A stretch of DNA of 64,000 bases from Phoronis australis. Its lineage: Eukaryota; Animalia; Phoronida. Position 1 is the first letter of the stretch; every line of letters begins with the position of its first letter. The position numbers and the translations under genes were made by a program. The notes below the pieces were generated by a model. The model saw only the letters and a program-made list of their open reading frames with translations. It was not told the DNA's origin and searched no databases. Below are positions 26,288 through 49,560 of the stretch, piece after piece. The stretch is from positions 1,773,742 to 1,837,741 of the forward strand of contig NMRA01000006.1 in assembly GCA_002633005.1 (NCBI GenBank), read 5' to 3'.

Positions 26288-29200
26288 TTAGTCAGTCCAA
26301 GCCTCGTAACAAGAAGAATATGTATCATCATTGCCGTCTTCAAGCAGTGCATCAGAAAGATCACGTAAACTAACATTACTCATTTCAACATCAGGGCGAG
26401 CCCGAAGCTCAGAAACTTCACGAACTTGCGAGCGTGAATAACTTGAAGAGAACGAATTCTCAACTTCAAGACGAGAACCGTAACCCATTTTGTTTCCTCG
26501 AGGATTCAATTTCACGTCCACTTTGTTGTGAAGACTATTGGAATTCTCATGTTCACCATCGTTGACACAAATGGACTCAATGCTGCGAGAATTGCTATAG
26601 TTTTCCATAAAGCTCTCAGATTCGAGACCAGAATCATCTTCGACTTTGTCAGCATGGGAGGAATCGACATCCACTTTGTTGTGAAGATGACTGGAATTTT
26701 CTTGTTCACTATTTTCAGCGGAAATGGAGTTGATCATGCCAGAACGGTTACAGCTTTCCATAAAGCTCTTAGATTCGACACCAGAATCATCTTCAACTTC
26801 GTCAGCATGGGAGGAATCGACATCCACTTTGTTATGAAGACTGCAGTCCCTTTGTTCACTGTGCTCAACCAAACTGGACTCGAGGCTTCCAGATAAGCTG
26901 TCCACATTTGATAACCCATCGCTTTGCTTCAAAAAATCACCGTCTTCAACTGGAACTTCAAGTGTGCTGTTAAGAAATGAATTGATAAGACCAGATTTTA
27001 CAAATGGGTCAGGTTGACAATCCATAAATCCTTTGTCTGGACAATAAAAACTGGTTTCAGATGAAAGGGTCGAGGTCATGACTGACTCAGTGCAACTACC
27101 ATGTAAACTGCTTCCGAGTTGAATCATCACAGTCACCTTGTCACCATTCTTCAGCCCAAGTGACTGAATAGAGGTCAGGTCATCGTCCATGATTTCTTCC
27201 GTACGACAAACACTTAAGTAAAACTCAGTGTCGGGTTCAAGGAACTGTGGATATTGAATGAGCAGTTTCCAGGAAATGTACAACTTCAGCTCTTTGACAG
27301 TGACCTCAGGTGGGACTTGAATAACATGGGTTGGCTGCAAGTCATCACTGATTAGTAGGGTGACTGTAAGCTCCACAAGACTGACTGTAGGAAAAACAAA
27401 TACAGTGACGTTGCTGGCTTTATTTATGCCATAATCATGGACAAGATTCTCGTCTTCCAAGGTTTTGCCAGCATAGATCAAGACATGGTCCTCTAGAGTG
27501 ATGTCCATGACTTCGCATATTTCTTGCTTAAGAGACAAGACCGTGTCGTTCCAGCGAACATAGCAGTCCATGGACCGTTCATTTCCCATGTATCGAACAC
27601 TGATCAGTATCATTCCGGGCATGACAAGAGTCATTGTCATTCCTGTTTTTAACAAACTAGACCTCTTATCAATTTCCAACAGCATTTGTTCATCTGGTAG
27701 CCTTTTGCCACGGTAGAACAGCTCACACATCGCAGAAGATACATTTCTAGTATGGGAGATGGACTGATTCAGATCCCCAATCTTCAGTGACCCAGTAACT
27801 GGTAGAGTGATGTTGGCATTTGAGGTTGTATCTCTGATACGCAGCAGGAAGTAATCTCTTCTGACACAGCAGGAAATTGTAGAACCTTCCGTGATGCCAC
27901 AGTCCGTCACGGAATGCCCCTCTTTACATTCTTCCCCATTAAACACGAGGTACAACTGGTAGTACGGAACATTTTGAGGGTGACTGAGTCTGAGCTTCGC
28001 TTTCAGTTTTTTGATGTCATCCCTGCCAGAAACTTTTAAACAAACTTTTGGCTCTGAGTCCTCGTCAAAAAGAACAACCTCTACACTAAACAGGCCTGGC
28101 TCGGGAAAAACAAATTTAGGCATGACTGAAAAAGAAACCTCTGAGATAGCCCCACATGCATTAACAATTGGTTCCTCATCAGAAACTAATGTGTTTTGAT
28201 ATGTCAGTGCCTGTTCCCCAACATCAATACCACAAACCGTGTCAACAAATTCCTTTATCTTCACCATGCTTTCTTCTCTTGACATTGACATTTCAATGGG
28301 CTCGCAGGTGAAACCCGTAATGGCAACTTTGACTAGCACTTTGTTGGAATCTTCTGTCTGCACTGCGCTCTCCTCTGGTACAGCAACAGCTCTCTCGTTG
28401 GTTAAATCTGAAAGATAACTGCATGTAAATCTAGTCGTGGAAACAGCAGAAATGCTTAGTAACACACTAAAGAGATAAAAAACAAATCTTTTACAAGACA
28501 TCAGGCCAACTGCTAACTCCAGTTTTTGTAGAGTGAGCAGATGAGAGACTGTCGCTCCTTGGGCGTAATGCTAGTCCATCACAGGTTACTTACCAGCCAC
28601 GGGTAGTAGTCATTACAGAGGAGTAATAAAGTGATGTGCTCCAGGACTCAATAAATATGCATGTCCTGAACACATCCACTAGGACAAGAAACTAGAAGAA
28701 CACAGCATTTATCCACCTTCACTCTTATCAGGCTTCTATTGTGAGTCAGCATGCGTGAATAATTGGCTGATAAGCCACCTAAGGAACTACTTTTGGCTGA
28801 ATGGATGACCAGGCCAAAAAATGATAATTAGCCAAGACCTTGCAGCATGGAATAGTTAATACCTTCACGGCAATTTTGAAAGAGTGGGCATCTTCTGCTA
28901 GTCGTTCGCCGTAAGTTTTTAAAAAAACTTGGTTTACCGACCTCTGATTTTCTGGATTATGCAAACATTAAAATTCAAATTTGCAATGTTTTCAGTTCCA
29001 CCATCATTATGCTATGGAAACAAGCAAAAATTGGCAACAATCCATACAAGCAACAAAGAATATCTCGTAAAATCAAATAGCCTTGGTGGAAAGCTGTATA
29101 CTGTATTGACCCTAATAAACGCCAAGGGAGCTTAGAAAAATTCATTTCATGGAGGGGACGCTTATTGTAGCCTAAGGTAGTTGAAACCCGGTTTCCAAAA

Positions 29201-32200
29201 CGGGTAAAATCGGAAGCTAGGATTCATCAAATTTACGCTCTGTGATGTATGTGTAGCCTATGACAGTCTTTCTACAAAACTGTAGTGTATTGCTGTCAAA
29301 CTCCGTTGTTAAATTACGATCATTTTTAAAAAAAATGTGATGAAATCCCAGGGCAAAAACTTGCCAACTGATACGTCGCTGAATCGCGATCGTCGATAGG
29401 AAAACTTGTATTCTTGAATAAAAATACAGTTTCGACTCAACAAACTACCTGAAATCCTCCTTATGTTTTACAATTTATTAAGTGGAGTCTAGATTAATTG
29501 CGATTAAGTCCAAATCTGCGCTACATCGTACCCCACAACACGAGAATAATCTCTGGATGAACACACATGTTGTTGCCACGTGACGTTTGTTTTGAAGTTT
29601 GTCTGGCGTATGAGAGTGAGTGAGCGAGTGCGTGCGGGTCATCAACAACAGACTTTGTTACAAAAGGCGGAGGATTATGCAAGAAAATGGCGTTTATTAG
29701 ATTGTTTTTCGCTTTAACGGCTGCAACGTGCAAGGTGAGTGCCGGTTAACTCACAAATTTTGTGTGCACAGGCCAACGGTCGTTAGCTCAACCATGGAGT
29801 ATAACATTAATAATCCTAGGCTCGATCTACATGGGTGACGAGCTGAACTATTCGGGCTGTGTGAAATTTCTGGGTCTAATGGAGACACTGACGCAGTGGT
29901 ACCTATAGTTTGCCAGCTCACTGTATCAAGACTATCGTCAAAATCCAAATTCGTTTTATCGTGTCCGTCAATAATAATGGCATGCTAGTTTCTTAATGTT
30001 TGTACTTCAGGAACATAACGATCCCGTGTTTTGTATATTACATACGCGCACACCGCAGATCACATCTCGGAAATTTCCGATTTGACGGATGACAATGGAA
30101 TGAGCACAATGAAATTAAACAATGTTGTTTTACAGCTTGTAAGATTCATAATAAATGCATTTTGAATATTGCAATACATGTGTTCCAAAATCTAAATAAC
30201 CTATAGAGTAGTTCTATATTATCCTAACTTGGGTCCTATATTTTTGTTTTCGTGCGCGCCGAATGAAAGTAATTGTGAGTGTTGCTGTGCTCCTAAATCT
30301 CTTATTCTGGGCCAATTTGAAAAATTCTAAGTTGTACCAACATTTTCTCTCTCTCCTCTTTTCAAATATTACACTCAAAACTACGTAAAACGCTCTCCAT
30401 AAAAATTACGGTCATCTAGGCTAGATTGTAATCAGCTGATCGTATCCGCATGACCAAAGCCAATTATCCTCGCTCGTGACTCGATGACTAGAGCAACTAG
30501 GCGGGATCCCTTTGATCGTGAGCTGAGCGCGACACAGCCAAGGTGGATAAATACAGTCTAGTTCAATCAGCCAAACCCCACTGTTTTCCCTGATTGACGG
30601 GGTTTGGGGCAATCTTATTTAGTGGGAATGTTCATGGCATGTCTGCAGCAAGCAGGTACTACAATTGAATTCACAACTGAACATATACATTGAGAGTACA
30701 CCACTAAGCCACATAGGCACTGTCAGCACTTGCAGTGGTAAATACATTTTTGCCATCTGCATCAGGAGTCTATTTCATCATGGACAACAGATTTGCAACA
30801 TTCGATATTTTCCTATGAAGTTCCAAGAAGGGGTGCCACTTTCTTCCAATGCTCAACTCAGTTTTCAGTTAGTGAGCAGATGACGTACTTGTCTAAGTTC
30901 ACCAGTTGACACCAATTAATATTCAAGTTGTGGCCAATAGCGAACTATAGCATTTGTGGTTGGGCTTCAGTGCAAGATCAGAAATTTTGTGCATTTAGAA
31001 TATATAGAGGTGGAAGTTTATCTACTACAGTTTATATAGTTTCAAAGAAATTTTTTGACTTTACACGGTGTTTCATGCAGATTGTAAACCAAGACATAAA
31101 ATTACAAAACGTAAAATCTCACTTATTTTATCTTTTTTCTTACAAAACATATGAAGGACCAAAAATCAAATGGCTTGCCACAGCTATTAGACAAAATTTG
31201 AAAAATTGTGGGGATTCACAGGCCCTTGAAAAAATGTTCAATCGGTTATCGATATTGTCTATAACTGGTGAGATTTTTGGGCGTACACACTGGGGGCATT
31301 TTTGGGAAATTCTCTTCACTCACAAATGACACAAAGTATATACTAGAAATAATCTTGTCTCAGGGTAGCACAGGCATCAATAAACCAAAATGCAGACTTA
31401 CCATTCACTTCAATTGATCGGATTTTGAATCTTGTAAGACCGTTCGACATTTCTTCCGTCACAACGTCTACAAAATAAGAATTGAAAATTTAAATATAAA
31501 CAACTAAAAAGTAGATATTTCAATTAAAAAATAATTGAAAGAGACAGGCTTCAGGTATTTAAAAGTTCGTAGTTCATATGATTTCGTGTTTGTCTGACAG
31601 TACAATACTATGCACTCATTATGGTCACAGCATTCAGTTACAAGCAAGTCATGAACCAGCATGCAAACATGTCCCAGCACCACCACCAGGTGGAGTGATA
31701 TCATTACTAGTATTTGGAGACTATCACACTATGTGACCTACTAGACTCCAGAACTGCAACCTTGGGGTTCTCCTGTGAACTTAGGGGCCAGTCACATCCC
31801 TCCATTACAGCAATGGGAGTAATAGTGTTCAAGCTCGGTGTAGTTGCCCAGGTTTCACAACTCCGTCGTAGTGGTACCCTATGCCGTGGGGGAACTTTAT
31901 CATGGATTGGGTCGGTAGGAACGGCCCGCTTGGTATTGTCAGGACAACGTGGGAATTTTAATTGGTGACACATGTGTCGAAAAGCCACTTTTCCTGTTGC
32001 CAGGTATTGCATTGGTCCATCATGTGAACCTGAAGGTGACGTACATACCTGACATTGTGAAAGACTCAGTCCGTCCCTCATTCTCTGAAATCACCAACAG
32101 CTGAGCAAGATGACCTTGTTTCGTTGTAATCATTGCTTGTATCAAACTTCTGTAGGCGTGATTCCCTTTTTTGCAAATGATGTTGTAAAATTCAGTGTTC

Positions 32201-34347
32201 TGTTCATGTCTTCCCAAATGCTTCTGAAATAGGAACGAGGTGAAATGTTGTAACAGTTATCTGCACTGTAATGTTAGAGAACACCTTTTGTATTTTAAGA
32301 TTAACTTTGAATGTTTAGAAAACCTGCAAAAGTGGGCAGAATCAAGTCAAAGGTTCAAAGTTTTAACTATACAGTTGTGACGTGGATAGTACCCTATTTA
32401 ATACCAAAAATAATGTACTAAAATCAAAAAAATATATGCAGGATTCCCCCACCACCCCCAAAACCATGTATCATGTGTCATCTCCAGAGTAAAGAATTGC
32501 ATGGATTTAACTAGAGAATAGTTTACGTGACACGCGATTGCGCTCTCGTGTCACGCCAGCTATTAAAGCGTCCTCACGTTTGCGCAGTACATTTCTACAC
32601 AAAACCAGATAAGTGCTGGTGAGTTCTTTTGTTTGTCTATTTTCTGGCGCATACGTGTATTAGCCGTTATTATTAGTTATCATTCGTTGTTTATATAGAG
32701 TTCAATTCACAGTATTTGTATATTCATTTTGTATGTTTCAGACGGACATTCGTCTTGCTTAATAAAGCATCGTTAGAAAAACCCAAGGGTTATTGTCTAT
32801 GTCCGTCAGCACTGGAAATGCCGTCAATTCCGTGCCCATACCCGGGATGTTCATATACAACCGGAGAAAACGACGTGGGCCTGGCCATCGAATTACTAAA
32901 AATACACGGCCTCATTCACACAGCACCACAGACCCCGTGTGCCGGTGCCGCCAAAGTGGAAAGAGTCAGCCGCCCACAGATAACTGCAGAAATCAGCGCC
33001 GCAGACTGGCAATACTTCACAACAAGATGGGACGAATATGTCCAGGCCACTGGTATTTCAGGGACAACAGAAGTGCTACAACTATTAGAATGTTGTGACG
33101 AGAAACTACGCAAAGATTTGACACGAAACACAATTGGGAACCTCACATCAAAGAGCACTGACCAGGTCTTGGCTTCCATCAGGAAACTCGCCGTCCNAAA
33201 CTTAACTTCGATGCTATCGGAGTTATCCGCAGAGGTCAATGCCCATGCTTGCCAACAGCGGATGGTGACTGCACAGTTTTAAAATACTTATATTAATATT
33301 TTGTTATACTATTTATTATTTTGGCAGTATAAGTATTTTGTTTCAATTTATCCATGTAATTGGCGGATTCTTTACATTAAAATAATCATTGAACATGTGG
33401 TGTACACAAAACGAGTACCTGTCATACCACAGATCAGCTGTTAGCCTACTCAAGTCAGTTTTTAAAACGTCATCTTCCAGCACCTTCATCGACCCAACGT
33501 GGCAATCGGATAAATCCTTGCTATTTTTTATTACAAGGCCAAAAACACATGGGCAAATGACCAAAGGTCAAATTCATGCCGTCTTGCGATAACTTTGCAA
33601 AACTAGTTTTGTGACTAACTCGTTCCGAAGCTGATGGGAACACTGACACTTAACTTTGTGGTTAAACATAGAAGCTTTGATAGTGGGAAAGAGCCTAACA
33701 ATCACCTCTTAAACTATTATTATCATAAAAATTAACAACATATTTATTGTGTTGTATCAGTTAACATATTCTGGGACACTAATTAAAACACATCAGCACA
33801 ACTGAATAACATCAGGAAGACTGTTTGCTTAAGGCTGAGCGAGCATTGACAAAGTGGAAAAGAAAGTCTGAAACAGGGCTAAACATTCACAACTTGCACA
33901 CATTGGTGACTGTGGTGCATTGTTGTTTAGGACACAATGCTTTGTTTTCAGATCAATTTTAACACCGCAAACACGAAAGCACCCATGTTCAAAATGTACA
34001 GAAGCAGTATCTTTCAAGGTGGAGTCAAAAGACATTATCAGCTCACACTATACAGAGACCAGAGTGAGGAACCAACACAGTAAGCATGAAGACTGCTGAA
34101 GGGCTAACTTCTATCAAGTGGAGACACTGTGGCATAACAATAGTGACTCAAAGAAAGTGTCACACAGATGAGATTTTCTTCAATGATTTTGTTCACACTG
34201 CAACTTTTTCTTTACCTCAATTCTTTCCTTGTCATTTTCTGAAATAGCTTGATTCATCCAAAGGTGCGGAGTAATGTCCGCTGCATTTGTGTCCTGCAGA
34301 AGTGTCACGTAATTTTGCTGGATGCGCTGCTTGTATTTTGCATCCAT
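26288..34347 (-). CDS. CARD + 5x ubiquitin-like domain protein, paralog A (~830 aa)
   Basis: Exons 34347-34216 (MDAKYKQRIQQNYVTLLQDTNAADITPHLWMNQAISENDKERIE), 32223-32049 (KHLGRHEQNTEFYNIICKKGNHAYRSLIQAMITTKQGHLAQLL...), 31467-31402 and 28407-26288. All GT-AG, phases 0/1/1, 2493 nt in frame. Exons 1-2 fit the CARD pattern (L..I..N...L, HL.....I...D.E.I, KG..A...L..A.....Q.HLA.LL). UBL array ~28339-27116, e.g. HVLIYAGKTLEDENLVHDYGINKAS vs ubiquitin [24 protein letters not shown]. Acceptor at 34375 and a probable 5'UTR donor (GTGAGT) at ~36753. AATAAA on the minus strand at ~25083-25088. A scaffold gap (33197) lies in intron 1. Confidence 0.85.
26460..26865 (-). repeat. Coding tandem repeat with 153-nt (51-aa) period, ~2.5 copies, in the paralog A tail
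   Basis: CCACTTTGTT anchors at 26518, 26671 and 26824. Protein unit LHNKVDVDSSHAD(E/K)VEDDSG(V/L)ES(K/E)SFME. Confidence 0.9.
32468..33196 (+). mobile_element. Ty3/Gypsy-like LTR retrotransposon 5' part (putative LTR plus gag start), cut by a scaffold gap
   Basis: ORF from ATG 32818: MPSIPCPYPGCSYTT...LLKIH...KVERVSRPQI...DWQYFTTRWDEYVQATGI...QLLECCDEKLRKDL, a pattern typical of invertebrate Gypsy gag N-termini. AATAAA at 32761. LTR boundaries are approximate. N at 33197. Confidence 0.7.
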
Positions 34348-35955
34348 AATTGTTGCTGCGTATGGTGCCGCTCACCTAGAATATGAATTTTTCGTTACTT
34401 TTGTTCATCAATCAACAGATTATCAGCCCACATCCTCCCCATCGCTACGAAGTATTGCTGCTGTTAAATAAAACTCTTATTCAGTCGTAAAACGGCATTA
34501 AATATGAGCATTCTTTAAAAAGGAGTTTTCGATTTAGGCTACTTGTCGTTATGAAATTAGTCTCACAATGTTCCTTAGCCAAACTAATAAGTGTGATTTG
34601 TGAGCTTGAAAAGATTTAGTAGTGATCAATATTTTTTAAATCTTGATTTGAAGCAGTGACGAACTCTCGCTTCTTCCTGAGCCCATGACACTTCATCACT
34701 AAGCAAGGAACAAGACACCGACAATTTTATAACAGTAAGTGGCCTAAATCAAAACTAGTTTTTTTAACAGAAAGCACGGGTTTAATGCCTGGCCACTATA
34801 AGTCAGTCACAAGTTTTCCAACCAAAACAAAAAAATGTTAGTTGGCCCTTTGGCTGCACAGCAGGGCCTGTTTTTGGGGTACCAAAAGGTTGTGGTTTAG
34901 TAAGCACATGAATAATGGTACTTTTGAACAACTTATATCTGGGGACAGTCAGCCACTGTAATCACCGCAACCTAGTGCTGCATTTCTAAAAACTGACTGA
35001 TGGGTTTGTGGTAAACAAGAGTAAAGCTTTAAAAATACCCTTCACTTCTTTTTAGTTAAAAACTGCATAAAAGGAATGTGACTGTAAACCAATCTAGTTA
35101 AAAGCTATCATCAAGTGGTATTCTTTCAACATATTTATAATCAAACATGTTCAAAATAAACATAATTAATGGAGGAACTTTCAAAATAACATTGCGGTAA
35201 TGCATAAACAAAATGGCCACCCACAGATGAACAGCGATGAACATCACTTCTCATGAATTTCCACAAACAAATACAAATACATGCAGGACTGTACTTAAAA
35301 ATATGTTCCTATTTTGGAAATATCAATTCATTGATGAAACTAAACTGGTTAAAGTAAAAGGAAAATGTGATTTTTAACTCTTAAGAATAGTTCATCAAAC
35401 ACGTGTATTAATCATAAATTCATGTAACTTTATTTTAAGTCAGTACAAAATATAAAACTGCCAATAGGGGCAAGTATTAGCCAACTATTGATCCCAACAA
35501 GCAGGAGAGCTGGGGTTTACAGCAAATGGTTTTAAAAAATAGGAAAAGAGACACAGGACACAGGTGATTCCAGTATTCTTTGCCAGAGGGAAGTCTCTGT
35601 AGAAATATAGCTTTGTATCCTAAAAATTATCTTCTTGAATTTGAAAAGCTGAATCAGTTTCCTCAGGAAAATCTATACATATGGTAAAACCTCACGGATA
35701 TTGCCGTTATTCAGTGAAAACTGGTTCTTGGCAGCCATTTTGAAGAGGGACCCATTTAAGCCACTTTTACACACCATCTCTACTACAGCCAGTTGAGATG
35801 ATATGGTGCAGTCTCATACAAAGACTGACCGAAAAACAGACATTGCTTTACATGAGGAAGTGTGTATGGTGTCAGATTTTATTTGGCCAGTTTTTTACTC
35901 TCTAGTGTCACATCGTTCCAATTCAATGCATTTGTATACAGTCAGTTATGTCTCA

Positions 35956-36529
35956 GTAAACAATGACCATCGTCTCTAACTTTCCCAAGTAGAGACGATG
36001 AAACTCCTATACTATAGGTGCTTCATACGATATGGAAACCTTTCCGGCAAATTATGCCTCACACTGACTAAAACATCAAAGTCACGTTGTTATAAATACT
36101 TTTTGCGCCTTAGAAGCCGCCGATGTATTTAATTTCTTCCAACTCGACGAAATACTCCCGTTATCAAACTTTTTCTTTGAGCAGTCCCTCGATCGTTCAG
36201 TTCCCAAAATCGGTAACTTGCCATTTTTAACACTGCGCGCGGCAGGGGGCGTGCACAGTGTTAAAAATGGTGAGTTACCGATTTTGGGAACTGAACGATC
36301 GAGGGACTGCTCGAAGAACGGGAATATTTGTTTGAGTTGGAAGAAATTAAAAACATTGATGGCCTCCTAAGGTATCCCTCTATGCGCAAAAGTTATTTAT
36401 AACAATGTGACTTTGATGTTTTAGTCAGTGTGAGGCAAAATTTGCCGAAAAGCTTCCAGCGTATGAAGTGCCTATAGGAGCTTCATCGTCTCTACTTGGG
36501 AGAGCTAGAAACGATGGTCATTGTCTAGT
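35956..36529. mobile_element. Foldback/MITE: ~280-bp inverted arms around a ~10-nt loop
   Basis: ACAATGACCATCGT...GGTAACTTGCCATTTTTAACACTG pairs with CAGTGTTAAAAATGGTGAGTTACC...ACGATGGTCATTGT; centre at ~36245. Confidence 0.9.
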
Positions 36530-36934
36530 ATATAGAGACCCGAATAAGCGCCGTATAGACCGGAAAACGAGTCTGAAAAAAATAATCGTATAGATACTGG
36601 ATATTCGGAACACGAGAGTAGGCGACTGCATGATTGTGCCCATCAACAATCTAACCACGAGTGCTGGGACCGCCCTAGACAGGACCTCCTTGCGTCAGAT
36701 GAGCTGGTCCATTTCAGAGTTGGCCTCACTGTCTAGAACCTGTAAATACTCACTTTGACTTAGCTTTAGGCCTACTGCTGGTACAGACCGTGTTACGTGT
36801 CCAAGTCCGACTATCTGAACTGTTTTTGTACTTTTAGGTCACAATTTCGAAAACTTCGACAACAGAGAACATTACATACCATAAAATAAAGTCAAATGAC
36901 TTCAGCTTTACGTCTGTTGACCAGTTGCCCAGTT

Positions 36935-37050
36935 GGAAACTTCTGGGAAAAACCTATACAGCTTTGTACCAAGGCTAGGAAAAACCTAGGGAAAAACCTA
37001 GCCATGCTTCCGGGCTTTTGTTCTGCTAAGTGGGAATTTTCTCCACGTGC
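36935..37050 (-). promoter_or_regulatory. Cluster of NF-kB/Rel-like sites upstream of the putative non-coding first exon of paralog A
   Basis: GGGAAAAACC 36945-36954, AGGAAAAACC 36977-36986, GGGAAAAACC 36989-36998, GGGAATTTTC 37032-37041 and an E-box CACGTG at 37044-37049. About 200-300 bp upstream of a minus-strand GTGAGT donor at ~36753. Confidence 0.45.
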
Positions 37051-37086
37051 TCGCAGTGTCTCCTAGCGGCAAAAAAGGAGTATATG

Positions 37087-37489
37087 CTGTGCGTAAACTT
37101 CGAACTTGAATTTTCATTTGGCCAATCAGGTGAAATTTTTTGTTCAGTGTAAACAAAGACGTTAACAAGACCAGAGATCGTTAACGTCTTTGGTGTAAAG
37201 ACTTTTTTTAAATTATTGGCCTTATGGTCATCCATTTTCTCCTTTAGCGTAACTTGTGTCAAATAATTGGAGGGAATGGTTAGTAAATCAATTATTGTTT
37301 GGTGAATAAGTTCGCCAATTGGTTAAAATTTACGTTATGTTATTATCATGTAATTTGATTTAGTGCAGTGCAAATTTTTAGCAACGTGAACGCGATTATT
37401 TGAGTGAACTTGTAGAGTTTCTTCGTGTATTCCAAGTTCACGCAAACACGATTGAGATTAAGCAAGACGTGTTCCAAGTTTACGCACAG
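37087..37489. mobile_element. MITE with TIR CTGTGCGTAAACTT(C/G)GAAC; second copy at ~52090-52575
   Basis: Termini CTGTGCGTAAACTTCGAAC and GTTCCAAGTTTACGCACAG. Internal blocks (TTCATTTGGCCAATCAGG, CTCCTTTAGCGTAACTTGTGTCAA, CATGTAATTTGATTTAGTGCAGT) are shared with 52090-52575. Confidence 0.7.
37154..37192. mobile_element. 39-bp micro-insertion with 13-bp TIRs and a 7-bp TSD (P-element-like termini)
   Basis: GTGTAAA | CAAAGACGTTAAC-AAGACCAGAGATC-GTTAACGTCTTTG | GTGTAAA. The other MITE copy has a single GTGTAAA (empty site) at ~52150. Confidence 0.75.
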
Positions 37490-37959
37490 TCCTATAAATT
37501 TGCTGGTGAGATGTCCGCGGTTTTGAAAACAAATACTTTTTACCTCTGACATACCATGAACCATTGAAAGAAGATATGACGCTTTTACCAAAGATACTGT
37601 ATAATATTTTTGCCATCACTACAAAATAAGTCTGTAAAGCCTGGAAAGTAGACGGTTTCAAAAAAGTGATTTTAAGTTCGCATCTGATACACAACCAATG
37701 ATCTTTAAGTTTATCAGAGCAAAAAACTCCGAACCCTTGTGTCCCGCACATTCTCTTATTATAATCAAGATAAAATTTAATGGTTGTCCCCATCCACAAG
37801 TCAGACATAGTAAAATCTTTGTCCGTTTATTTTGTCGATCTAGCCTACCTATTTACGTTAAAACTTGGTGAATACATGATGTCATTAGTTTTAGTTCCAA
37901 ATAAACCAAAACTCAAACTGTTACCAAAATTTTAAAGTTGTGTTTGAACATGAAAACAA

Positions 37960-38270
37960 TTTAGAAATTGATAATCTTCCAAGAGTATTCTTTTTGTACA
38001 ATGAAAGTTTTACACGTTTTCGATTTGCGAACCACAGACTGCAGTAGAAACTGGTCGTCACATAAATGTGATATATAAAGACAGAGTGTGTACATTATGC
38101 TCTGGAAATTGTGTCAAGGATGGATATCACTTTTTGTTAGTTTGTGACCTTTTTTTCCGCAGAGCTGAGTTTCTAAGTGTGAGCCTCTGGACAAGTCCCT
38201 CTCTGCTTGAATGTCATAGACTGTTATGTAATCTTGATGCCTCAGTTGTGAAATATTTATAGTACGCATC
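37960..38270 (+). mobile_element. LINE ORF2 C-terminal fragment
   Basis: RFRFANHRLAVETGRH...RVCTLCSGNCVKDGYHFLLVC, a Cys/His knuckle typical of non-LTR element 3' ends. Confidence 0.7.
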
Positions 38271-38493
38271 CAAAAAACGCAACGCTGAGCTTGTGTAGTG
38301 CTGACTAGTGTGCATAGCACCGCACTGATCTTGTTTGTTTGTTTGTTGTAGTTTGGGCCGATGGCCATGTATACAAATAAAGAAGAAGAAGATAATTGAA
38401 AACTGCTCCCTAGACACTTTTTATCCCCAGTGGTTGCTCATACATGTATTTTATACATCTTGCCGCTACTCATTTACAAAATTTGGCGCACTT

Positions 38494-38760
38494 TCACTCA
38501 AACAAGAAAGACTTGCAAAACACACGCCTTGGGTTGCTTCGGAGAATGCGCTTAGTTGATGACCAGTGACGTCTTTTCGTTGTTTCGTAATGCATGGTTA
38601 TCAGTGATAACCCAGCAACCCTTTCCTCAGACATACACGTAGTAGCCCTCAAATGTGTCTTCACAAGCCTGAGCAAAGAAAGTGATCTCTCTGCCTCACA
38701 GGACCCAGTAGGGGATAGCTCCCTGACGTTTGGGAAGATGTCACCGTCTGCATGCGTGTT
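38494..38760 (-). mobile_element. hAT transposase C-terminal dimerization-domain remnant
   Basis: DIFPNVREL..TGSCEAERSLSLLRLVKTHLRAT..MSEERVAGLSLITMH matches the hAT dimerization motif (S...ERSFS.L..IKT.LR..M...RL..L). Confidence 0.75.
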
Positions 38761-38769
38761 TAAGTGTGG

Positions 38770-39047
38770 CATGCGCGCACCCAGCCTAAAATATAGGGGG
38801 GGCTCGAATTTTTCGGTATGCAGACCTTTTACTGAAAAAATAAACGAGGACTAAAAAAGGGCCACCAGGTTCAGGCCTACGAATTGTGCATCCGTGCCGA
38901 ATTCCTGTGGACTTTGTAGACATTTGTCTCGTTTTGCTCGGACTTTTTGTTTCGTTGAGGCGGACCTTTTTGCCCAATTCGCTAAATTGGGGGGGGGGGG
39001 CGTTCAAGACCCCCTCCCCCCCACCCTCCCCCCAGGGTGCGCCCATG
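38770..39047. mobile_element. Small MITE with G/C-tract subterminal regions
   Basis: Imperfect TIRs CATGCGCGCACCC and GGGTGCGCCCATG; no clear TSD. Confidence 0.5.
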
Positions 39048-40224
39048 GAGTTTTTGTATATTTTTTCACTCTTCCTGTAGTAGTATTTTAGAAATCCAGC
39101 TGATAAGTTTATTTTCACAAAATGTGCTATAAAACGCGCTCCTTTAGTTTAATAAGTCAAAACTTAATGTCGCCAGTGACCTTTTTGAAGATTGGATAAA
39201 TTTCATTATTTTAAGAGAAACGGGATATGTGCGCTATGATACTGTTCTGTCGACAGAGGGGCGGGGGTAAAAAAGTATACATGGCATATCTTGTGGATCG
39301 CACGCATACAGTATGTTTCATGGGTTGTGTGGGAGCCCGTTACTCAATTGTCGAAATGCATAATGCGAAAATCTGAAAAAATAAATGCATTTTATTAGAA
39401 AGATATCTGCGACCGCCCTGCGGTTGGTGAGAGGGGGAGAGTTTCCACCAGACCTCGCCGAAATGAATTGTTCTTCGCTACATCACCTTCGAAGGCTAGA
39501 AACTGGATGACAAGGAAAAACTGTTCATGTACATGCATGTATGTACAAGTACTTACGCCCACTCTCCTATACCCGAAATAACGGGTGTCATAAATTGGCG
39601 TAAGGGCACAAGTTCCACTCATTAGGTCAGGGAGTTTTGCACATGTATATCTTAACGTGGCTGTTTTGGGGTCTTTATTTAAATTATTACTTTTTTAATG
39701 CTAAACTGATCCGATCTCAACATCCATGCTGTACCGAGCGTTACTTTTAATAACAGAAATGAATTTGATTTTCATTATGTATTCGAAATTGAAAATTTAT
39801 GATTTTGTTGTGGTAGCGTTTGCATCAAACGAATTTTCAGGTACGCGTATAATTATCTTATTTTCCAAATCATACAATTTTTAACTTTAATCCATGCCAT
39901 TTTTAGCTTAGTTCTTGTTTATTTATCAATATTTTTGTTTTAGATTGAAATGATAACAGAACAAAACCCTTTTACCAAATACCAATAAAAGTTCTAAACT
40001 AAAGTACTGACTTCTTGTTTTTATTCATTAGTATCTAATGTAGTATCTAGAATAAAAACAATGACATAAAAATGTTTATTAAGGAAACCGACTTCGTTTG
40101 GGAAATTAGAACAAATTTTTATCAAAGTAAATAGATTAAACCAGTTGTTTTTTTACGTTTTTCTTATTCTGAGACCATTACATATGTATAAATTAAATAA
40201 AACTATTATTTTTTTAAATACATT

Positions 40225-41373
40225 TTATTTCTAAATACACTAATATTTACAAACAATAACATCTTTGCGAATCAAACACAGGCACACACACACGCACACA
40301 CATATCTAAAATATAGAAATTCACGGTTGGTCTAAAATAAATAGGCATTGATGGTTTCCCAAAAGGCAGTTTTGCGGGGTTGTATATTCCTTACTTTACA
40401 ACAATTATACAAGAAACATTGAAATTGTGAATATCTAGGAATAATCTGGTTTCTAGAACATTTATGGATGAAATACTGGCAAATAGTTAATAAGGTATTG
40501 ATATCTTCAAAATTACATGTAAAATATGCTGTCAAAATAACATTTCTATCTAAGATTAAATCGTGTTGTGCAGTTACGTAAATTAAAAGTTTCTGAATTT
40601 CACACCACAAAGTTTTCACAGTACCACATTCCACAAACACATGGTTAAAAGTCTCAACAGTTCCACAAGATGCACACTTGTCATCACTGACTAAGTTCAT
40701 CTTTTTCAAAATAAGTTGTGTAAACACTTTTCTATGAATATAGAAGTACTTAAAGGTTTTAACATAAGGAGGTAACAAGAGTTTGAGTGGAAGAACGTAA
40801 ATTTGTTTAATTCGTTGTCAAGAATAAATGTCAGTTAAGCTGTACTCTATATCAGGAGGCAAAACAATTTTGGAAAGCCAATATTTCTAGAAAACACATT
40901 AGTAATTTGACTTGACTGGGGATGTATGCATTTTGAATCCAATTTGAAAGCTTAAATCTATTTTTCAAAACCTCCCATGTTAGAAATTTATTTTCAAAAT
41001 TCAAAAGATCCTTCACAAAAGTAATACCAGCCTCAAAAAAACTATTAAAGAATACAGTCCTCCTATTAATCAATATGTTTTTGTTATTCCACACTACTTG
41101 GTTTACAATTGTTATGTCCTTATGTAAATGAGCACTAATTTCCTCCCAAGCAATCAAGATGTCAAGATAGAAGGTATCAATATTTGCAAGAGACAGCAAT
41201 TTACAATCATAATTTGATTTAAAGATCAAAATACCTCCATATGTTTTTAAAACATACCCTGGAAACGCTTTGAAAATTTCATTGTTTCCATCTAAGCAAC
41301 GGGTAACCCATTTAACTAATAATGACTTGTACATAATATTTATATCAGGAACTGACAAACCACCATATTTCAT
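40225..41373 (-). mobile_element. L1/Tx1-clade LINE ORF2 3' fragment
   Basis: GGLSVPDINIMYKSLLVKWV, VVWNNKNILINRRTVFFNSFFEAGITFVKDL and CASCGTVETFNHVFVECG. Interrupted between two ORFs; ends in a minus-strand AATAAA and A-rich tract near 40225. Confidence 0.8.
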
Positions 41374-41555
41374 GGGTATTTACAACCACATATTTTTATT
41401 TAAAAAGGAACACACTCCTTTTTTAAAGTGACGAAGAAAAATAGAAAACTAGTTTCAAGTTGACAATGCATAGTATTTTATACCACAATATTAGCCTCAA
41501 ATGGCAGATACAACCGTGTAATAACCCATAAAGTTATCTCACTAGTGAGATAACG

Positions 41556-41640
41556 ATTTGGGAGAAACCGAGGACGGGGTCGAACCCGGGACCCTAATAT
41601 GGCTGGTCGCCGACTTTACCACTACACCACGCAGCGACTG
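41556..41640 (-). mobile_element. tRNA-like head (SINE or part of a larger element)
   Basis: Minus strand has A box TGGTGTAGTGGTAAAG and B box GGGTTCGACCCC; acceptor and anticodon stems do not close properly. Confidence 0.5.
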
Positions 41641-42815
41641 ACGTCATCAAGAGTGAAAATAGAATACTTAAATGAGCACGCACAATAATCGCACGTTCAA
41701 CAAACCGCATTGTACCGTACTTATACGCTACGAAAAATAAGACACATAATTTCCATTAAAATGATATCTTAATTCAATGAAATATTTCTCTCATGTCCTC
41801 TCACTTGTAAATCACCGATCTCCAGTTTGAATGCGGGTATCGTGTCGTCAGGATCTTTGGCTTGAGAATTATATTCAGTTACCAGTGGTAACCTACTTTA
41901 GCAGACGATAATTTCCCGGTCGAAGCTTAGCGTGAAAAAACGTGTTTTAAGCTATAATAGTTGGTAAACCTTAATTTACAAATTCAGTTTATTTCTATCA
42001 TATTTAAGTTTTTAATTGGTTTTGAGTAAAAGCATTATTTGACAAAAATAGCCCGGCTTTTCTTAAAAGGTCACGACCTCTGACCCCGGGCCTCTGACAT
42101 AGAAAGTAGTTACAAAGCCGTGGAGAGTCAGAAAAGGTAAATCGATTCATTGCAATGTTTCTCGCTTAGTATGTAGATTTTGGAGAATTATCACCCTCGG
42201 GGCTAGCGCACCTCGGGCGATAACTCTCCAAAATCCACTCGGGCTCTAGATAACGGGGGATAACGACTTCGCCATGTAATAATCTATATTTATCTATAAT
42301 GTACAAAATTCTTATCACCCACACGTAGCTAGAAATGAACTATCTAATTCTATAGTTAATACGTAAGTTCTATGTCTAATCATAGATTATAGGCTATGGT
42401 CTATTGTTTTGTACATGTTGTCCGTCAATAATGACTCCCATTTGTATGTCAAATACCGCTGTCATACTCCATTCAAGTTTTGGGTAGTCCTCTGTGCAGA
42501 CTGATATTGTATATTTGGAACAGAAAGTGTGCAGACGGATACTTTTAAATACTTATTATCGATAAAAGACAAATAAAATAACTTTTACAACCATTTATCC
42601 TTTTTCCTACATCGGAAACTGAGCTTGTAGCATAACCAAGAGAAAAAACACTGTATATGGTCTAATCAGAATGCATCAGTACTCGGAAGCCTACGGTCTT
42701 TCATTGGCGTCGGCTTACGGTTTCTTCGTCCTTTGCATCTCCCAGACATTGATCTCCGTGAAGTCTACAGTACACCTTGCAGCTTTGAATTTTTCTGTAC
42801 GAGAAATGTGAACCT

Positions 42816-45800
42816 TCAGAACTGAGAAGTATTTTTTTCTTTGCCTGCTTTGTCTTCTTTCAGTGCGTCAGAGAGGTCATCCAAACTGACGTTACTCGTA
42901 ACAATATTAGAGCGGTAAACGTCGGAGAATTGTGAACTGGACGTTGGAGAGGTAAAATTATTCCATTCTTGGCTAGAATCGGCTTTTACGTTTTCTTCCA
43001 AATGCTTGGACACGCCTTCTATGTTTTCGTTATTGTTTGTGGAACTGACATTTAAACCAGCTTGCACCGTTTTTCCTATTCGACTGGAATCGAACCCGAG
43101 TTTGTTTTGAAGGCAATTGAAATCTGTTTCCTTCTTGTCTTGGCAAGGATTTAATCCGCCTTGTTCATTTTTTGCGGGGAGTCCGTGTGATCCGAGACTT
43201 TGCAACACGTTGTCTAAATGATCATCGCAAATAGTGGAATTAAGTGAAACGGTCTTCATGGTATCGCTCGAAACATCTGGTGTGTGGTCAGAGTCGTCAT
43301 CGAATCCAGCATCTGTATCTACTGACGAGAGAGGTTCATCCGTGTCTGAATGGATCCCGCTCTGTTGGCTTATACCAGATTCGTCATCTGACAGATACTT
43401 AAGTAAACCTTTGTCAGGCAAATACTGACTATCACACTGACTGGGCGCAGGCGAGATATTCATGTTGAAAAATGAGTCTGAATCGCTTTCAAGTTGAATA
43501 ATGACGGTGAGTTTGTCTCCGGTTTTCAACCCATGCGACTGAATAGTCGTCTGACTACCCTCAACGGTTTTCTCTGTACGACAAACGGTAATGTAGAATC
43601 GTGAATCTGGAACGAGGACATCTGGATAAAGGGTGAGAAGTTTCCTGGAAATGTCCATTTTCAAATCTGTGACGGTGGCTTCGGGTGAGACCTTCAGCAC
43701 ATGAGTGGGCTGTAGGTCGTCGCTGATTAGAATGGTGATGGAAAGCTCCACCAGGTGGTCCGATGGAATGACTAATACGACGGCATCGCTGTTCTTATTT
43801 ATTCCGTATTGGTGGATAAGACCTTCATCTTCCAACGTCTTGCCAGCGTAAACCAAGACATGATTCTCCCGCGTAATGTTCATTAATTCACATATTTCTT
43901 GTTTAAAAGACGAGATTTTGTCGTCCCAGTGAACGTAACAGTCCATATACTGATCGTTCTTTACATTATGAACTTTGATCAGTATCATTCCCGGCATGAC
44001 CAACCATAGCTTCATTCCAGTTTTGGACAAGCTATCAAACCTGTCGGTTTCTAAGAGAGTTTGTTCGACTGGCAATCTTTTGCCGCGATAGAAGAGCTCA
44101 CACATGGTGGCAGCCACGTTTCGTGTTTGGGATATGGAGGAAAGAAGGTCCCCTATCTTCAAAGAACCAGTTACTGTTAAATTGAAGTAGGTGTTAGAGC
44201 TGGTATCTGTAATTCCCAGGAGGAAGTAATCTTTTCTAATTTGGCAGTAAATAGTGCATCCTTCAGTAATGCCGCATTCCGTCACGGTATGTTCGTCCCT
44301 GCATTCTTTGCCCTTAAACATCAGGAATAACTGGTAGTACGGGACATTTTGAGGGTGACAGAGTTTGATCTTGGCTTTTAATTTCTTTATGTCGTCGTCA
44401 GCAGACAATTTTAGTTGTATAGGCTGGGATGCTTCGTCTGCAAGAACAACCTCGATGCTTAATTGCTCTGGTTCTGTGAAAATAAATCTGGGCACTACCC
44501 ATAAGGAAATCTCAGTACCGGAGCCACGGCAGGCATTGACGATGGTTTCAGTGTCTTGAATCGTCACGTTCTGATACGTCAGTACTTGGTCGTTTACATC
44601 AAAGCCGCAAACCGTCTCCACAAGCTCTTTTATCTTCACCACCTTGTCTAATCCAGACAGTGACCCTAGAATTGGCGCACATTTGAAACCCATCACTTCA
44701 ATTTTGACCTGGACGTTGTTGGGGTCTTTGGCTTGTAGCGCATTGTCGTCATTGTCAGCGTCTATTCTGTGGGACTCTTGATCAACGCATAAATCTATAA
44801 GAAAGTGTCAACAAATGAAATGCATGTGTGTCAGGTTCTTCAATGTTCACTGAATGTTAATAAATAGTCAGTGAGGGCTTGTCATTATTATCATGTGAAT
44901 GATAAGTTTCAGCTTGAAACATATTATATTATGGAGTAAGACGGTTGTTCCACAAACGTGATTAAGGTTGGAGATAACCAATCCAAACTTGTCAACCGCG
45001 CGTTGGTCCTGCAGCCGGCCACATGCAATCGGAAACCCTAAAAGGTAGGCCTTTATCGTTTTCACGGATGACACGCGCATGGTTGTTATTATTGGTGAAT
45101 TGGGTAGACATGATTGATTATGAAACAGCTTTGTTGTGGTTTTATTGTCAATTTCGCCGTTGTTTCCCAAGCATTCCCTGAAATCAATGTAGGCGACTTT
45201 ATCAGTTAAGTTCGCATAAAATACTGTGCCAGTTATCAAGTGGATTTACTCCGCCAGCAGAGTGTTTTGACTGCGAATGTGAAGATTCCAGGTTCAAACT
45301 CTTCCTGAGGCTGATATAGATCACTTTTCTTGCCGCGTTTCAGTTCTGGAGAGAGTGTTTGCCCGGCCGGGCTTTACAAAATCAATCTTTGGTCCCAATC
45401 CTTGCAAAGGTGTCACAGCATCGAGCGCTTTGTCAAATTTTATTGAACCAACACGTACATTTCATAATTTATTTGGTTCTTTCTCGTATCAATTAAAAAC
45501 TAAACCGGTTACCTTTTACGATTATAATTTTTGAATTCGACAAATTGAACTCAGTGCCCTCTGTTGACAGGTGCTAGATAACGGTCAAGTAATTTCTGCC
45601 AAAGGCAAATACAACTTTTCTTGTTTGGCTTAGCTGCGACTGTGTTCGGTGTATGGCAAGGCTTTAATTAACATTCATCATCGTTTACGGACTTACTTTC
45701 AGTAGATCTGATTTGAAATCTGATGTCGCCGTTCTCCATTTCTTCTGGTATCACATCTGGAAGATGAAAATTGATATCTCAAAAATTCTTTCAAGAACAA

Positions 45801-48131
45801 TGACAGATAAAATAAGTGAAATTTAGATACAATTTCTTTTACATAAGCTGTTGTATATGTCTGTCTCGTTAATATCTGAATTGCGTTGTTTTTTAGTGAA
45901 AAAGTCATTCAGGTTGACATTGATAACCATTTGACTTCGGGGCACAGTGCTGAAAATTCTGTGCCAAGCAACGCTCGACTAAAATTCGGGACCTGCGTGA
46001 ATGAGCGGGATAGATTAAGTCTCTATCCTTGCGTTACGGGGTAGAGTTCAGTAAAGCTAGGACCTCGTTAAAAAGCAAGACTGCACGAGCAAGCAGTGGT
46101 GTTCATTACAACAACCTTTAACAGTCGTGAAAGAGTTGCGCCGTCCTTCCTCTTCTGTAATCAATAACAGCTTGGCAAGATGACCTTGTTCTGTTAAAGC
46201 CATGGCTTGTACCAACGTTTTGAATGCGTGATTTCCCTTTGTAAGAATGGCTTTGTATAGTTCGATGTTTTGTTCCTGTCTCGCAGCATGTTTCTGAAAA
46301 GTGCGTATACCGTATAAACGAGTATTTAGGCTCATACGAGGTTATATGTGAAGATATGTCTATATCCGAATCATAGGCAAATAAGAAGGAGTAATTTGAG
46401 CATGCGGTTGAAGCTTATTTTATCCACTAAAACACGTAGACGTTGACGTGAATTCATAATAAGGAATGGAGCAAATTCCATGACTGCGCCTTTAAATTCC
46501 AGAACTCCAGTCCTGGACCAGCCTTACTCCAAACCCGTGGTACAAATCCCCATCCGCACCCCTTAAGCGAAAAATGTTCTATACCCGGTAGCCACACTCC
46601 AGTCCTTCCAGTGGGGACCATGGTTCCATGGCCGCATCACTGATCTGGTTCCCAGGGTTGAAGTTTTGGAGTTTCGTCATCGTGCACGGAGCGTTTTAGG
46701 AGCGTGTTTGAGTTGCGGGTCTGTGGAGTTTGGACGGTGCCAGTAAGGTATCTGCTAATTTATTTTGGCGGGAAATTATAGGGGCGATCGTGGAAATGCT
46801 TCCCTCCTGATAAAAACTAATGAAACGTGAAAAGAACGGAACCGCATGTAGCAGAAATAGCCGCCTTCACCTTGAAGTGAAGCTTACGTACATGAACGTT
46901 TATAAAAATATCGATTGCAAACATAAATATTCATTGACACAAATAGTTGAAAAAGTGCACAGTACCAGATGTGTGCCTGAAAAGCATTTGTCAACAATTT
47001 TCAGAGACAAGCTTACATATAATACCGGGCGAGTTCTGTTTACATTTGCCAATTAGTATGCATCAATATGCCGGTAAAATATGACAAATGCAGTTGTTGT
47101 TGCAACTCGTTTTTCTTAAGCCAAAGTTAAAATTTGCTGAAAGGTTGTCGCTCAAATCTTTAAAACAATTCTCAAAATATAAGGTGTGTTACAGCGGCAA
47201 TAAAACCACCTGACTCTGCCGAAGAGACTAAATTTTGATTTAGACTTCTTACAGTTGTAAAATTGATCTCGACTTCTTCCTTACTCAGATGACAAGTGAT
47301 TTTTGGTTTTACAAGGAACTGGTTATTCGTTATTGAAAGGACATGCTGTGACAAGCCAACTTGTGGAGCATGGTCTCGAGTTACAAAGAACTCGGTTACG
47401 TTCCGAGCTCAGAAGCCGCACCTATTTTCCTATTTAGACTAAGCAACAATTTCAGACCGATTTTCGGTAATTAGTTGCAAAGGACACAAGTACGACAGTC
47501 GTACACGAAAGTAGTATTTGAAGATTGTAGACAGGACTTTTAGTCTTTTAAGACGAATGATGCAGTCTGGCTGGTGTATAGAAAGTAGTGACTCAAGACT
47601 AAACTTTATTGCTGTGGTGGAAATTTTGTTGATAGAACAGGGAGGTGTCTGATGGTGTGGCTCCACTGTTTTCTCCCCGTCATTCTGTCACTTCTGACCA
47701 TGATCGGCCTGTGAAGGGCATTTGGGAAAATGAGTCGCGAAAAGGGTGCCATAGTGAGACAGGAACTCGGCCGAGAACATGCTTTTTGGTAACTTTACTG
47801 AAACTCTACTGAATCCAAGTGGTGTAAGAGGGCTTAAATGTTTATAATGAAATTGTGTGAACTGACAAATCTTTGCGGCATTGGTGACTGCCTGTAGACA
47901 AAGTGTGAAGGCTTGAGCAATGGAAATGCAAACAATCAAACAACTCCAAAAATCAACTGGCTTTATTTCTAGAGTGCCCACGTTGTGCTAATTTTTTACC
48001 TCAATTTTCTCCTTGTCGTTGTCAGAAATAGCTTTGTTCGCCCATAAGTGTGCAACAAGGTCTATGGCATTGGTGCTGCGCTCAAGTTCTACGTAGTTTT
48101 CCTTTATGACGTCTTTGTACCTTTGATCCAT
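42816..48131 (-). CDS. CARD + 5x ubiquitin-like domain protein, paralog B (~782 aa)
   Basis: Exons 48131-48000 (MDQRYKDVIKENYVELERSTNAIDLVAHLWANKAISDNDKEKIE), 46293-46116 (KHAARQEQNIELYKAILTKGNHAFKTLVQAMALTEQGHLAKLL...), 45756-45697 and 44794-42816. GT-AG, same phases 0/1/1 as paralog A, 2349 nt in frame. UBL array ~44715-43491 is colinear with paralog A (HPQNVPYYQL, VTGSLKIGDL, MCELFYRGKRLP, YAGKTLEDE, LISDDLQPTHV). Acceptor at 48163 and 5'UTR donor GTAAGT at 49219. Confidence 0.87.
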
Positions 48132-49220: not shown

Positions 49221-49560
49221 GTAAAATGAAACTGCCGAACTGACCTCTTTGCCTGTATCTCTTTGGGAAATTCCCACTTCTGATTGTGGAAAGATTGCTT
49301 TTGTCAACAGGTGGCGAGATCGTCAAGGCCTCGAGTTGGCTCACCAAAAAATGCCAACCCACATGTGCCCGTTATCATGGAAAACAAAGCGAAAAAATTC
49401 CAGGACACAAATTTTCTGTTCAAGAATTTAATTGTCTGCAGGACCAAAAATATACTTAAAACCAAAGTATTAATCGCGCCAGGATCTATAATTATCGCGT
49501 GAGGATCAAAATTTAACACGCCGGACAAAAAATTTATCAGGTCAGGAAAATTTCACAACA
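49221..49560 (-). promoter_or_regulatory. kB and IRF-like sites around the putative non-coding first exon of paralog B
   Basis: Near-palindromic GGGAAATTCCC at 49265-49275, AAAATGAAACTG (IRF-core-like) at 49223-49234 and GGAAAATTTC at ~49545, all next to the donor at 49219. Confidence 0.45.

Follow-up and report, generated by a model that had tools for sequence, protein, structure and literature searches.

Two minus-strand genes and their transcripts

We analysed a 64-kb stretch of DNA from the phoronid Phoronis australis (assembly GCA_002633005.1, contig NMRA01000006.1, positions 1,773,742 to 1,837,741 of the forward strand), referred to below, at its full length of 64,000 nucleotides (nt), as the window. 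It contains two paralogous four-exon genes on the minus strand, denoted A and B, each of which encodes a likely CARD, five predicted ubiquitin-like domains (UBLs) and an acidic tail. The gene models were assembled from splice signals visible in the sequence and then translated. The exons measure 132, 175, 66 and 2120 nt in gene A and 132, 178, 60 and 1979 nt in gene B, with intron phases of 0/1/1 in each copy, GT-AG boundaries at all six introns and no internal stop codons. The encoded proteins, of 830 amino acids (aa) for A and 782 aa for B, are 49% identical to each other. A sequence-only reading of the locus had proposed that the long minus-strand open reading frames (ORFs) at 26288-28570 (gene A) and 42816-44807 (gene B) are only terminal exons, to which three small upstream exons splice in frame, and the sizes, phases and coordinates of our models match that proposal. 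The two genes comprise the following features.

34216..34347, minus strand: first coding exon of gene A (132 nt, starting with the ATG); encodes the N-terminal half of the CARD-like domain
32049..32223, minus strand: second exon of gene A (175 nt); encodes the C-terminal half of the CARD-like domain
31402..31467, minus strand: gene A exon 3, 66 nt; conserved linker of 22 aa
26288..28407, minus strand: last exon of gene A (2120 nt, through the stop codon); strand-specific RNA depth of about 2-12
27107..28348, minus strand: gene A predicted five-UBL array, residues about 145-558; boundaries transferred from the gene B model; Pfam ubiquitin E-value 7.7e-29
26291..27106, minus strand: gene A tail, acidic and rich in Ser, with a 51-aa repeat in three copies; the C-terminal motif that also occurs in gene B lies at 26336-26380
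48000..48131, minus strand: first coding exon of gene B (132 nt, starting with the ATG); encodes the N-terminal half of the CARD-like domain
46116..46293, minus strand: second exon of gene B (178 nt); encodes the C-terminal half of the CARD-like domain
45697..45756, minus strand: gene B exon 3, 60 nt; conserved linker
42816..44794, minus strand: last exon of gene B (1979 nt, through the stop codon); strand-specific RNA depth
43482..44723, minus strand: gene B predicted five-UBL array, residues about 148-561; AlphaFold2 model, Foldseek and VIA-align
42819..43481, minus strand: gene B acidic, Ser-rich tail; ends in the motif common to gene A, at 42852-42896

Upstream of both ATGs, an in-frame stop lies at most 10 codons away and an AG acceptor lies 28 or 32 nt away (at 34375 for gene A). 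This arrangement indicates that the CARD is N-terminal and makes a 5' non-coding first exon likely. The RNA evidence comes from three stranded raw-read runs of one study carrying the same species label, and about 18–19% of each run was sampled. First mates over the exons fall almost entirely on the plus strand, in keeping with minus-strand transcripts. In gene B, intron 1 is skipped exactly in nine reads from all three runs, and intron 3 is skipped exactly in seven reads from two of the three. Intron 2 is skipped in three reads of a single run at a shifted position, where the net skip is 362 nt versus the predicted 359 nt and the frame is kept; the 3-nt shift is most simply an allele difference. 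Three further gene B joints exist beyond those listed. These junction reads indicate that the CARD exons are joined to the UBL exon in the gene B transcript, and gene B therefore does not encode a solitary-CARD protein. For gene A, 14 reads spread over all three runs skip intron 2 at exactly the predicted positions. The splicing anticipated by the sequence-only reading is thus recovered throughout gene B, with the shift at its second intron, and in gene A, among the joints listed, for the second intron. A further record set, consisting of contigs, does not cover the exons. Genes A and B are both expressed.

The end of gene A intron 3 (28408-28501, minus strand) carries an in-frame hydrophobic stretch that resembles a signal peptide and would mislead naive ORF calling. 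A secreted 737-aa protein beginning with this stretch was considered and rejected: the acceptor at 28407, together with the corresponding junction of the paralogous gene B, which is seen in reads, marks that start as intron 3 read in frame.

The CARD-like head and the ubiquitin-like array

The 146 residues preceding the UBLs consist of the CARD-like head and a linker. The exon halves of the head were scanned separately against a Pfam library of 24,736 families. Gene A exon 1 matches CARD_2 (E-value 0.014, profile positions 1-42) and CARD (E-value 0.098, positions 2-39), while exon 2 matches CARD (E-value 0.056, positions 46-82). The two exons thus correspond, collinearly, to the first and second halves of one family, and the PF00619 halves score 13.1 and 13.9 bits, which can be added only roughly, against a curated cut-off of 23.9. 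Such collinear matches of both gene A halves to the same family would be unlikely to arise by chance. Gene B exon 2 also matches CARD (E-value 9.3e-4, positions 43-82, 19.6 bits); gene B exon 1 alone gives no Pfam match, yet it is 59% identical to gene A exon 1. In the ESM Atlas, the best hit of gene B exon 2 (0.92) is a cluster with CARD on 28% of its members, sharing 204 of 256 features with the query, and the second hit (0.84) carries CARD on 90% of its members; the recognition value of the query is 2533. All ten named best hits belong to one family or clan. Considering the half-matches together with these neighbours, the N-terminal head is likely a CARD, as the sequence-only reading had claimed, although an assignment by PF00619 stands only as a collinear pair of half-matches. 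No OAS family match was found in the Pfam scans of the region. The exon 3 linker is 59% identical between A and B with a ratio of nonsynonymous to synonymous divergence (dN/dS) of 0.13, and is therefore as conserved as the domains; it matches no family and may be a binding motif.

Pfam detects three ubiquitin stretches per gene. A profile of UBL units built from search hits identifies five positions in each protein, strongly for units 2 and 4, moderately for units 1 and 3, and weakly for unit 5 (0.1 and 4.9 bits). The AlphaFold2 model of the gene B array, computed with a 38-row alignment of UBL proteins in which unit 5 is poorly placed, contains five beta-grasp units with a mean predicted local distance difference test (pLDDT) score of 81.5. 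Its predicted template modelling (pTM) score of 0.51 indicates that the relative orientation of the units is not fixed by the model, and single-sequence folding of the array reached a pLDDT of only 33. Five beta-beta-alpha-beta-beta (beta-grasp) folds are accordingly predicted for each protein, in agreement with the number claimed from the sequence. Foldseek ranks linear tetra-ubiquitin as the best match, followed by the USP7 UBL array, di-ubiquitin, ISG15 and the OASL di-UBL. In VIA-align, unit 2 superimposes on ubiquitin with Z-scores of 14.6–14.7 and root-mean-square deviations of 0.9–1.4 over 75–77 residues, and unit 4 superimposes on ISG15 with a Z-score of 14.4 and a deviation of 2.3 over 79 residues. 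A viral structure library returned only generic ubiquitin-like matches. The structural identity of the array is 21–22% to ubiquitin versus 8–10% to the USP7 UBLs.

No Gly-Gly pair occurs in protein A or in either UBL array, and protein B contains a single pair, at residue 669 in the tail. In the Pfam scans, the terminal exons matched no enzyme family, none of the exons matched a protease family, and no USP7-family match appeared. The tails of both proteins contain 17–20% Asp plus Glu, consistent with the acidic character noted previously, and 17–20% Ser, and they align poorly with each other. The 51-aa repeat, with three copies in A, has a counterpart in a related motif of B. Close to their C-termini, both tails share a conserved stretch of 15 residues that could form an amphipathic helix.

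The sequence-only reading had further described the array as a built-in pseudo-polyubiquitin chain, an idea that is partly supported. The spacing of units 2-5, measured from the equivalent of Leu69 to the next equivalent of Ile3, is 8–11 residues versus 10 in linear (M1) ubiquitin, whereas the gap between units 1 and 2 is 18 residues. This spacing is unlike that of the K63 chains, which act as scaffolds for RIG-I. The units are only 12–28% identical to ubiquitin and 8–28% identical to one another, and most of them do not carry the ubiquitin surface formed by Leu8, Arg42, Ile44, His68 and Val70 together with Leu73. Only UBL4 has the hydrophobic triad at positions 8, 44 and 70 in both copies (Met/Ile/Phe in A and Val/Val/Leu in B), with unit 5 being ambiguous. 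Each unit is nevertheless 53–70% identical between the paralogues. Divergence from ubiquitin and from each other, combined with conservation of each unit between the paralogues, fits five specialised modules.

The surfaces of these units were also compared between A and B. At the Ile44-face positions 8, 42, 44, 68 and 70 of UBL2-4, 5 of 15 residues are identical, against 96 of 147 at other non-core positions (p=0.023). This comparison is post hoc, covers 15 positions in one alignment and does not distinguish relaxed from positive selection. A six-position patch taken over all five units gives 15 of 30 identical residues against 160 of 269 non-core. In UBL2, all 7 positions of the 33-40 loop are identical. 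The variable Ile44 face of UBL2-4 argues against a conserved mimic that is read by conserved host ubiquitin receptors.

Paralogue divergence, relatives and the surrounding window

The dN/dS values were obtained by a counting method from gene A versus gene B. They are 0.32 (0.13–0.63) for the head, 0.16 (0.09–0.22) for the UBL array and 0.19 (0.12–0.27) for the CARD, UBLs and linkers together. Both copies are under purifying selection, which confirms an earlier suggestion made from their intactness. Synonymous divergence (dS) is about 1–1.5, and reaches 1.46 over the region from the CARD to UBL5. The genomic alignment of A and B is confined to exons, apart from one 56-nt inverted match, and the introns are unalignable. 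The high dS and the unalignable introns indicate that the genes are old, maintained duplicates and not alleles; a haplotype or assembly duplication was rejected on the basis of the dS of 1.46 and the exon-only alignment. A tblastn search with either protein found no third copy in the window.

Searches for relatives returned arrays of ubiquitin-like units. The UBL region, compared with 5.8 billion proteins of 361–1152 aa, gave no orthologue among 5446 candidates at E ≤ 1e-5. An alignment search with exon 2 yielded no orthologue or CARD-bearing relative (0 of 37 at E ≤ 0.01), and none of 448 pattern matches in metagenome contigs was confirmed. A phmmer search of 1.84 billion representatives produced 690 hits, the best 150 of which are all at most 33% identical and represent polyubiquitin or divergent multi-UBL arrays; arrays of up to about 20 units are common. 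Among these best 150 of 690, a two-sequence CARD profile detected no CARD (best E-value 0.34). Pfam scans, which covered the hits other than the 61 of 150 with canonical polyubiquitin junctions, recovered no death-fold match from 51 hits at E ≤ 1e-6, from 38 at E ≤ 1e-12, a threshold too strict for a divergent CARD, or from eight rescanned at 1e-3. In the ESM Atlas, CARD is present in none of the ten rows listed for the UBL region, where recognition is weak (2095) and the query itself is CARD-free. Divergent arrays of about 6–15 UBLs carry a C-terminal protein kinase in 8 of the 51 scanned hits and a COR domain in one of the eight rescanned.

No protein combining a CARD with a multi-UBL array was found in the literature, where domain-architecture tables in supplements could contain such a layout; the single paper in which the two domain names stood side by side concerns the interaction of the RIG-I CARD with ubiquitin. 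The sequence searches likewise revealed no such layout, in line with the earlier statement that the architecture is unlike that of characterised proteins. CARD-(UBL)5 is a new domain architecture within a known class of death-fold regulators, and the gene family looks lineage-restricted.

The remainder of the window contains RFC1 exons (BRCT, AAA lid and RFC1 C-terminal domains) at about 6847-19531 on the plus strand, convergent with gene A; this is a housekeeping gene and is uninformative on function. Upstream of gene B, a perfect palindromic site of the NF-kB type occupies 49265-49275 and precedes a GT donor at 49219 by about 45 nt. For gene A, three sites with one mismatch each, at 36945-37041, precede a donor at 36879 and adjoin a short repeat. 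Counts of kappa-B-like sites across the window are within chance. Homologous first exons bearing such sites were rejected as unproven, since alignments of equal quality were obtained for 90 of 1956 and 51 of 1958 control windows. Retroelement remnants include an RNase H fragment (10100-10651, plus strand) and, between genes A and B, a zf-RVT fragment with an adjacent ORF (40332-41379, minus strand). A 201-aa ORF containing an N (32677-33282, plus strand) lies inside gene A intron 1 and appears gag-like by eye, with no convincing Pfam match. Nested inverted repeats at 35957-36527, upstream of gene A exon 1, are typical of a small non-autonomous transposon. An element with tandem units of roughly 430 bp, probably also a transposon, is present twice in opposite orientations, at about 1700-3430 and 19830-21520. 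An exact direct duplication at 52931-55300 (1217-bp spacing, N at 54147) is possibly an assembly artefact.

Candidate roles and known systems

The presence of a CARD, together with the lack of an enzyme and of a recognised sensor domain, implies that the protein most likely acts by docking. We tentatively propose that proteins A and B regulate CARD signalling complexes non-enzymatically, by docking on them, and that their effect, in that case, is likely damping. The single CARD would bind a CARD partner, such as a caspase prodomain, an NLR, a RIG-I-like receptor or an adaptor, by homotypic contact. A CARD without an effector, bearing a 45-kDa UBL rod, might then cap or sequester a growing CARD assembly, in the manner of CARD-only proteins and FAT10. 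The UBLs would serve as separate, specialised docking modules and not as a faithful ubiquitin chain, and the two old paralogues may serve different partners. A UBL combined with an unstructured tail can drive proteasomal turnover. UBL4, with its hydrophobic Ile44-type patch, and the long disordered tail could thus provide a route to the proteasome. CARD-only proteins are described as competitive inhibitors in the available part of one source (PMC3775265). Similarly, the accessible text of another reports that FAT10, a di-UBL protein, binds the RIG-I 2CARD non-covalently and dampens RIG-I (PMC4800306). The feedback-inhibitor option raised by the sequence-only reading fits at least as well as the activation that it also considered.

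Several observations weigh against this proposal. Introns 1 and 3 of gene A are absent from the RNA joints listed (15 of 38). PDB sequence searches with each CARD half retrieved no solved CARD, and neither half alone reaches the Pfam cut-off, such that the head is supported by profiles and a language model. The UBL4 patch is identical between A and B at 1 of 5 positions, which is weak for a surface that binds a conserved proteasome, and the four UBLs that do not carry a hydrophobic patch need a different explanation. The kappa-B-like sites upstream of both genes are not above chance. Moreover, we infer both the partner and the damping, and the sign of the effect, inhibition or activation, is not fixed by sequence; an immune role is suggested by the CARD alone.

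The sign of the effect is also the main difference from a rather unlikely alternative that overlaps with the damping proposal. Proteins A and B may act as neutral scaffolds or adaptors that relay a signal: a complex would be recruited through the CARD, and the individual UBLs would each engage a particular downstream kinase, ligase or deubiquitinase, much like those in the five-UBL array of USP7. The five dissimilar, separately conserved units with conserved surfaces outside the Ile44 face, exemplified by the invariant UBL2 loop, are consistent with such a role, as is the USP7 array among the top structural matches. The fusion of multi-UBL arrays to kinases or COR also indicates that such arrays recur in signalling proteins. 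The units are, however, structurally nearer to ubiquitin than to the USP7 UBLs.

An activating role similar to that of OASL appears improbable. In this mechanism, the array would mimic a polyubiquitin chain and stabilise CARD oligomers, its own or those of a partner, to switch signalling on without an E3 ligase. The precedents are the chain requirement of RIG-I CARDs, whose tetramers are stabilised by chains of at least four ubiquitins and not by mono-ubiquitin according to the portion of the source available (PMC4107945), and the two UBLs of OASL, reported as K63-chain mimics in a similarly partial source (PMC6019448). Five units in a row would provide the needed valency. On the other hand, their head-to-tail geometry resembles M1 chains and not K63 chains, the units differ among themselves and mostly do not carry the Leu8/Ile44/Val70 surface of ubiquitin, and a single CARD is present versus the tandem pair of RIG-I. 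A constitutively expressed self-activator would also need a brake, and none was found.

Comparably improbable is a sensor that uses the array as bait. Here, an uncleavable UBL rod would be a decoy for enzymes or effectors of microbes that recognise ubiquitin, linear chains or ISG15-like modifiers, and their capture would free or cluster the CARD, leading to signalling or death. The sole hint is that the Ile44 face is the most variable non-core surface between the paralogues in UBL2-4, and the post hoc nature of that test, its few positions and the all-unit patch (15 of 30) temper it. The linear-chain-like spacing and the structural matches to linear tetra-ubiquitin and ISG15 fit a bait, and an array without Gly-Gly could bind deubiquitinases yet escape cutting. 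The searches found no orthologue, which is common for arms-race genes. The low overall dN/dS (0.16 in the array) and the restriction to two copies in the window argue in the opposite direction, and autoinhibition or a cleavage site has to be assumed. A ubiquitin-chain-like bait wired to a CARD, as an integrated decoy, was not found described for the animal ubiquitin system in the literature searched.

We consider it very unlikely that the N-terminus is not a functional CARD or that the protein acts outside immunity and cell death: the sub-threshold Pfam halves and the absence of CARD-bearing relatives from the exon-2 and PDB sequence searches would agree with this, but the collinear matches to both halves of one family, the CARD neighbours in the Atlas and the constrained head oppose it.

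The proposed docking regulators can be compared with several known systems. The CARD-only proteins (COP/CARD16, INCA/CARD17 and ICEBERG/CARD18) resemble A and B in having a single CARD, no catalytic or sensor domain and an organisation as lineage-restricted tandem paralogues. In contrast, the CARD of A and B bears five UBLs and an acidic tail of 220–270 aa, and no homology to caspase-1 CARDs came to light. FAT10 and ISG15 are two-unit modifiers ending in Gly-Gly. They share with A and B head-to-tail UBLs that have diverged from ubiquitin, and ISG15 is a close structural match; A and B differ in their five units, the lack of Gly-Gly in the arrays and the extra domains on both sides. OASL likewise contains tandem, non-conjugated UBLs within a larger protein and is reported, in the part of the source available, to act on CARD signalling (PMC6019448), and the di-UBL of chicken OASL is a Foldseek match of the gene B model. 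OASL has two UBLs after an OAS-like domain and no CARD, whereas in A and B the OAS domain is missing and the five UBLs share their chain with a CARD.

Linear (M1) polyubiquitin and its precursors provide the best matches in both sequence and structure, and the spacing of units 2-5 agrees with theirs within 2 residues. However, the A and B units are diverged from ubiquitin and mutually unlike, no LRGG junction is present and the linker between units 1 and 2 is 8 residues longer. The USP7 HUBL region is likewise a row of five dissimilar UBLs with a C-terminal tail behind it, and it is found among the top 15 Foldseek matches, whereas USP7 has a protease domain, for which A and B show no match, and no CARD. 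Shuffling of death-fold and adaptor domains, including combinations with ubiquitin-system domains, is described as common in marine invertebrates in the available portions of five sources (PMC2575513, PMC3308963, PMC12909245, PMC6652118, PMC8195603). The death-fold and TRADD-N shuffles among them are likewise lineage-restricted combinations of adaptor modules (PMC8195603, PMC2575513), and the accessible text of none of the five describes a CARD with a multi-UBL array.

The significance of the genes is bounded by the apparent lineage restriction of the family, the frequency of death-fold shuffling in invertebrates and the wide occurrence of multi-UBL arrays on their own. While K63 chains and OASL raise CARD assemblies in trans and FAT10 lowers them, proteins A and B place a CARD and a five-UBL rod in one chain. 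Genes A and B thus offer a naturally occurring test of whether a look-alike of a ubiquitin chain, encoded in a gene, can turn a death-fold complex on or off, or act as bait.

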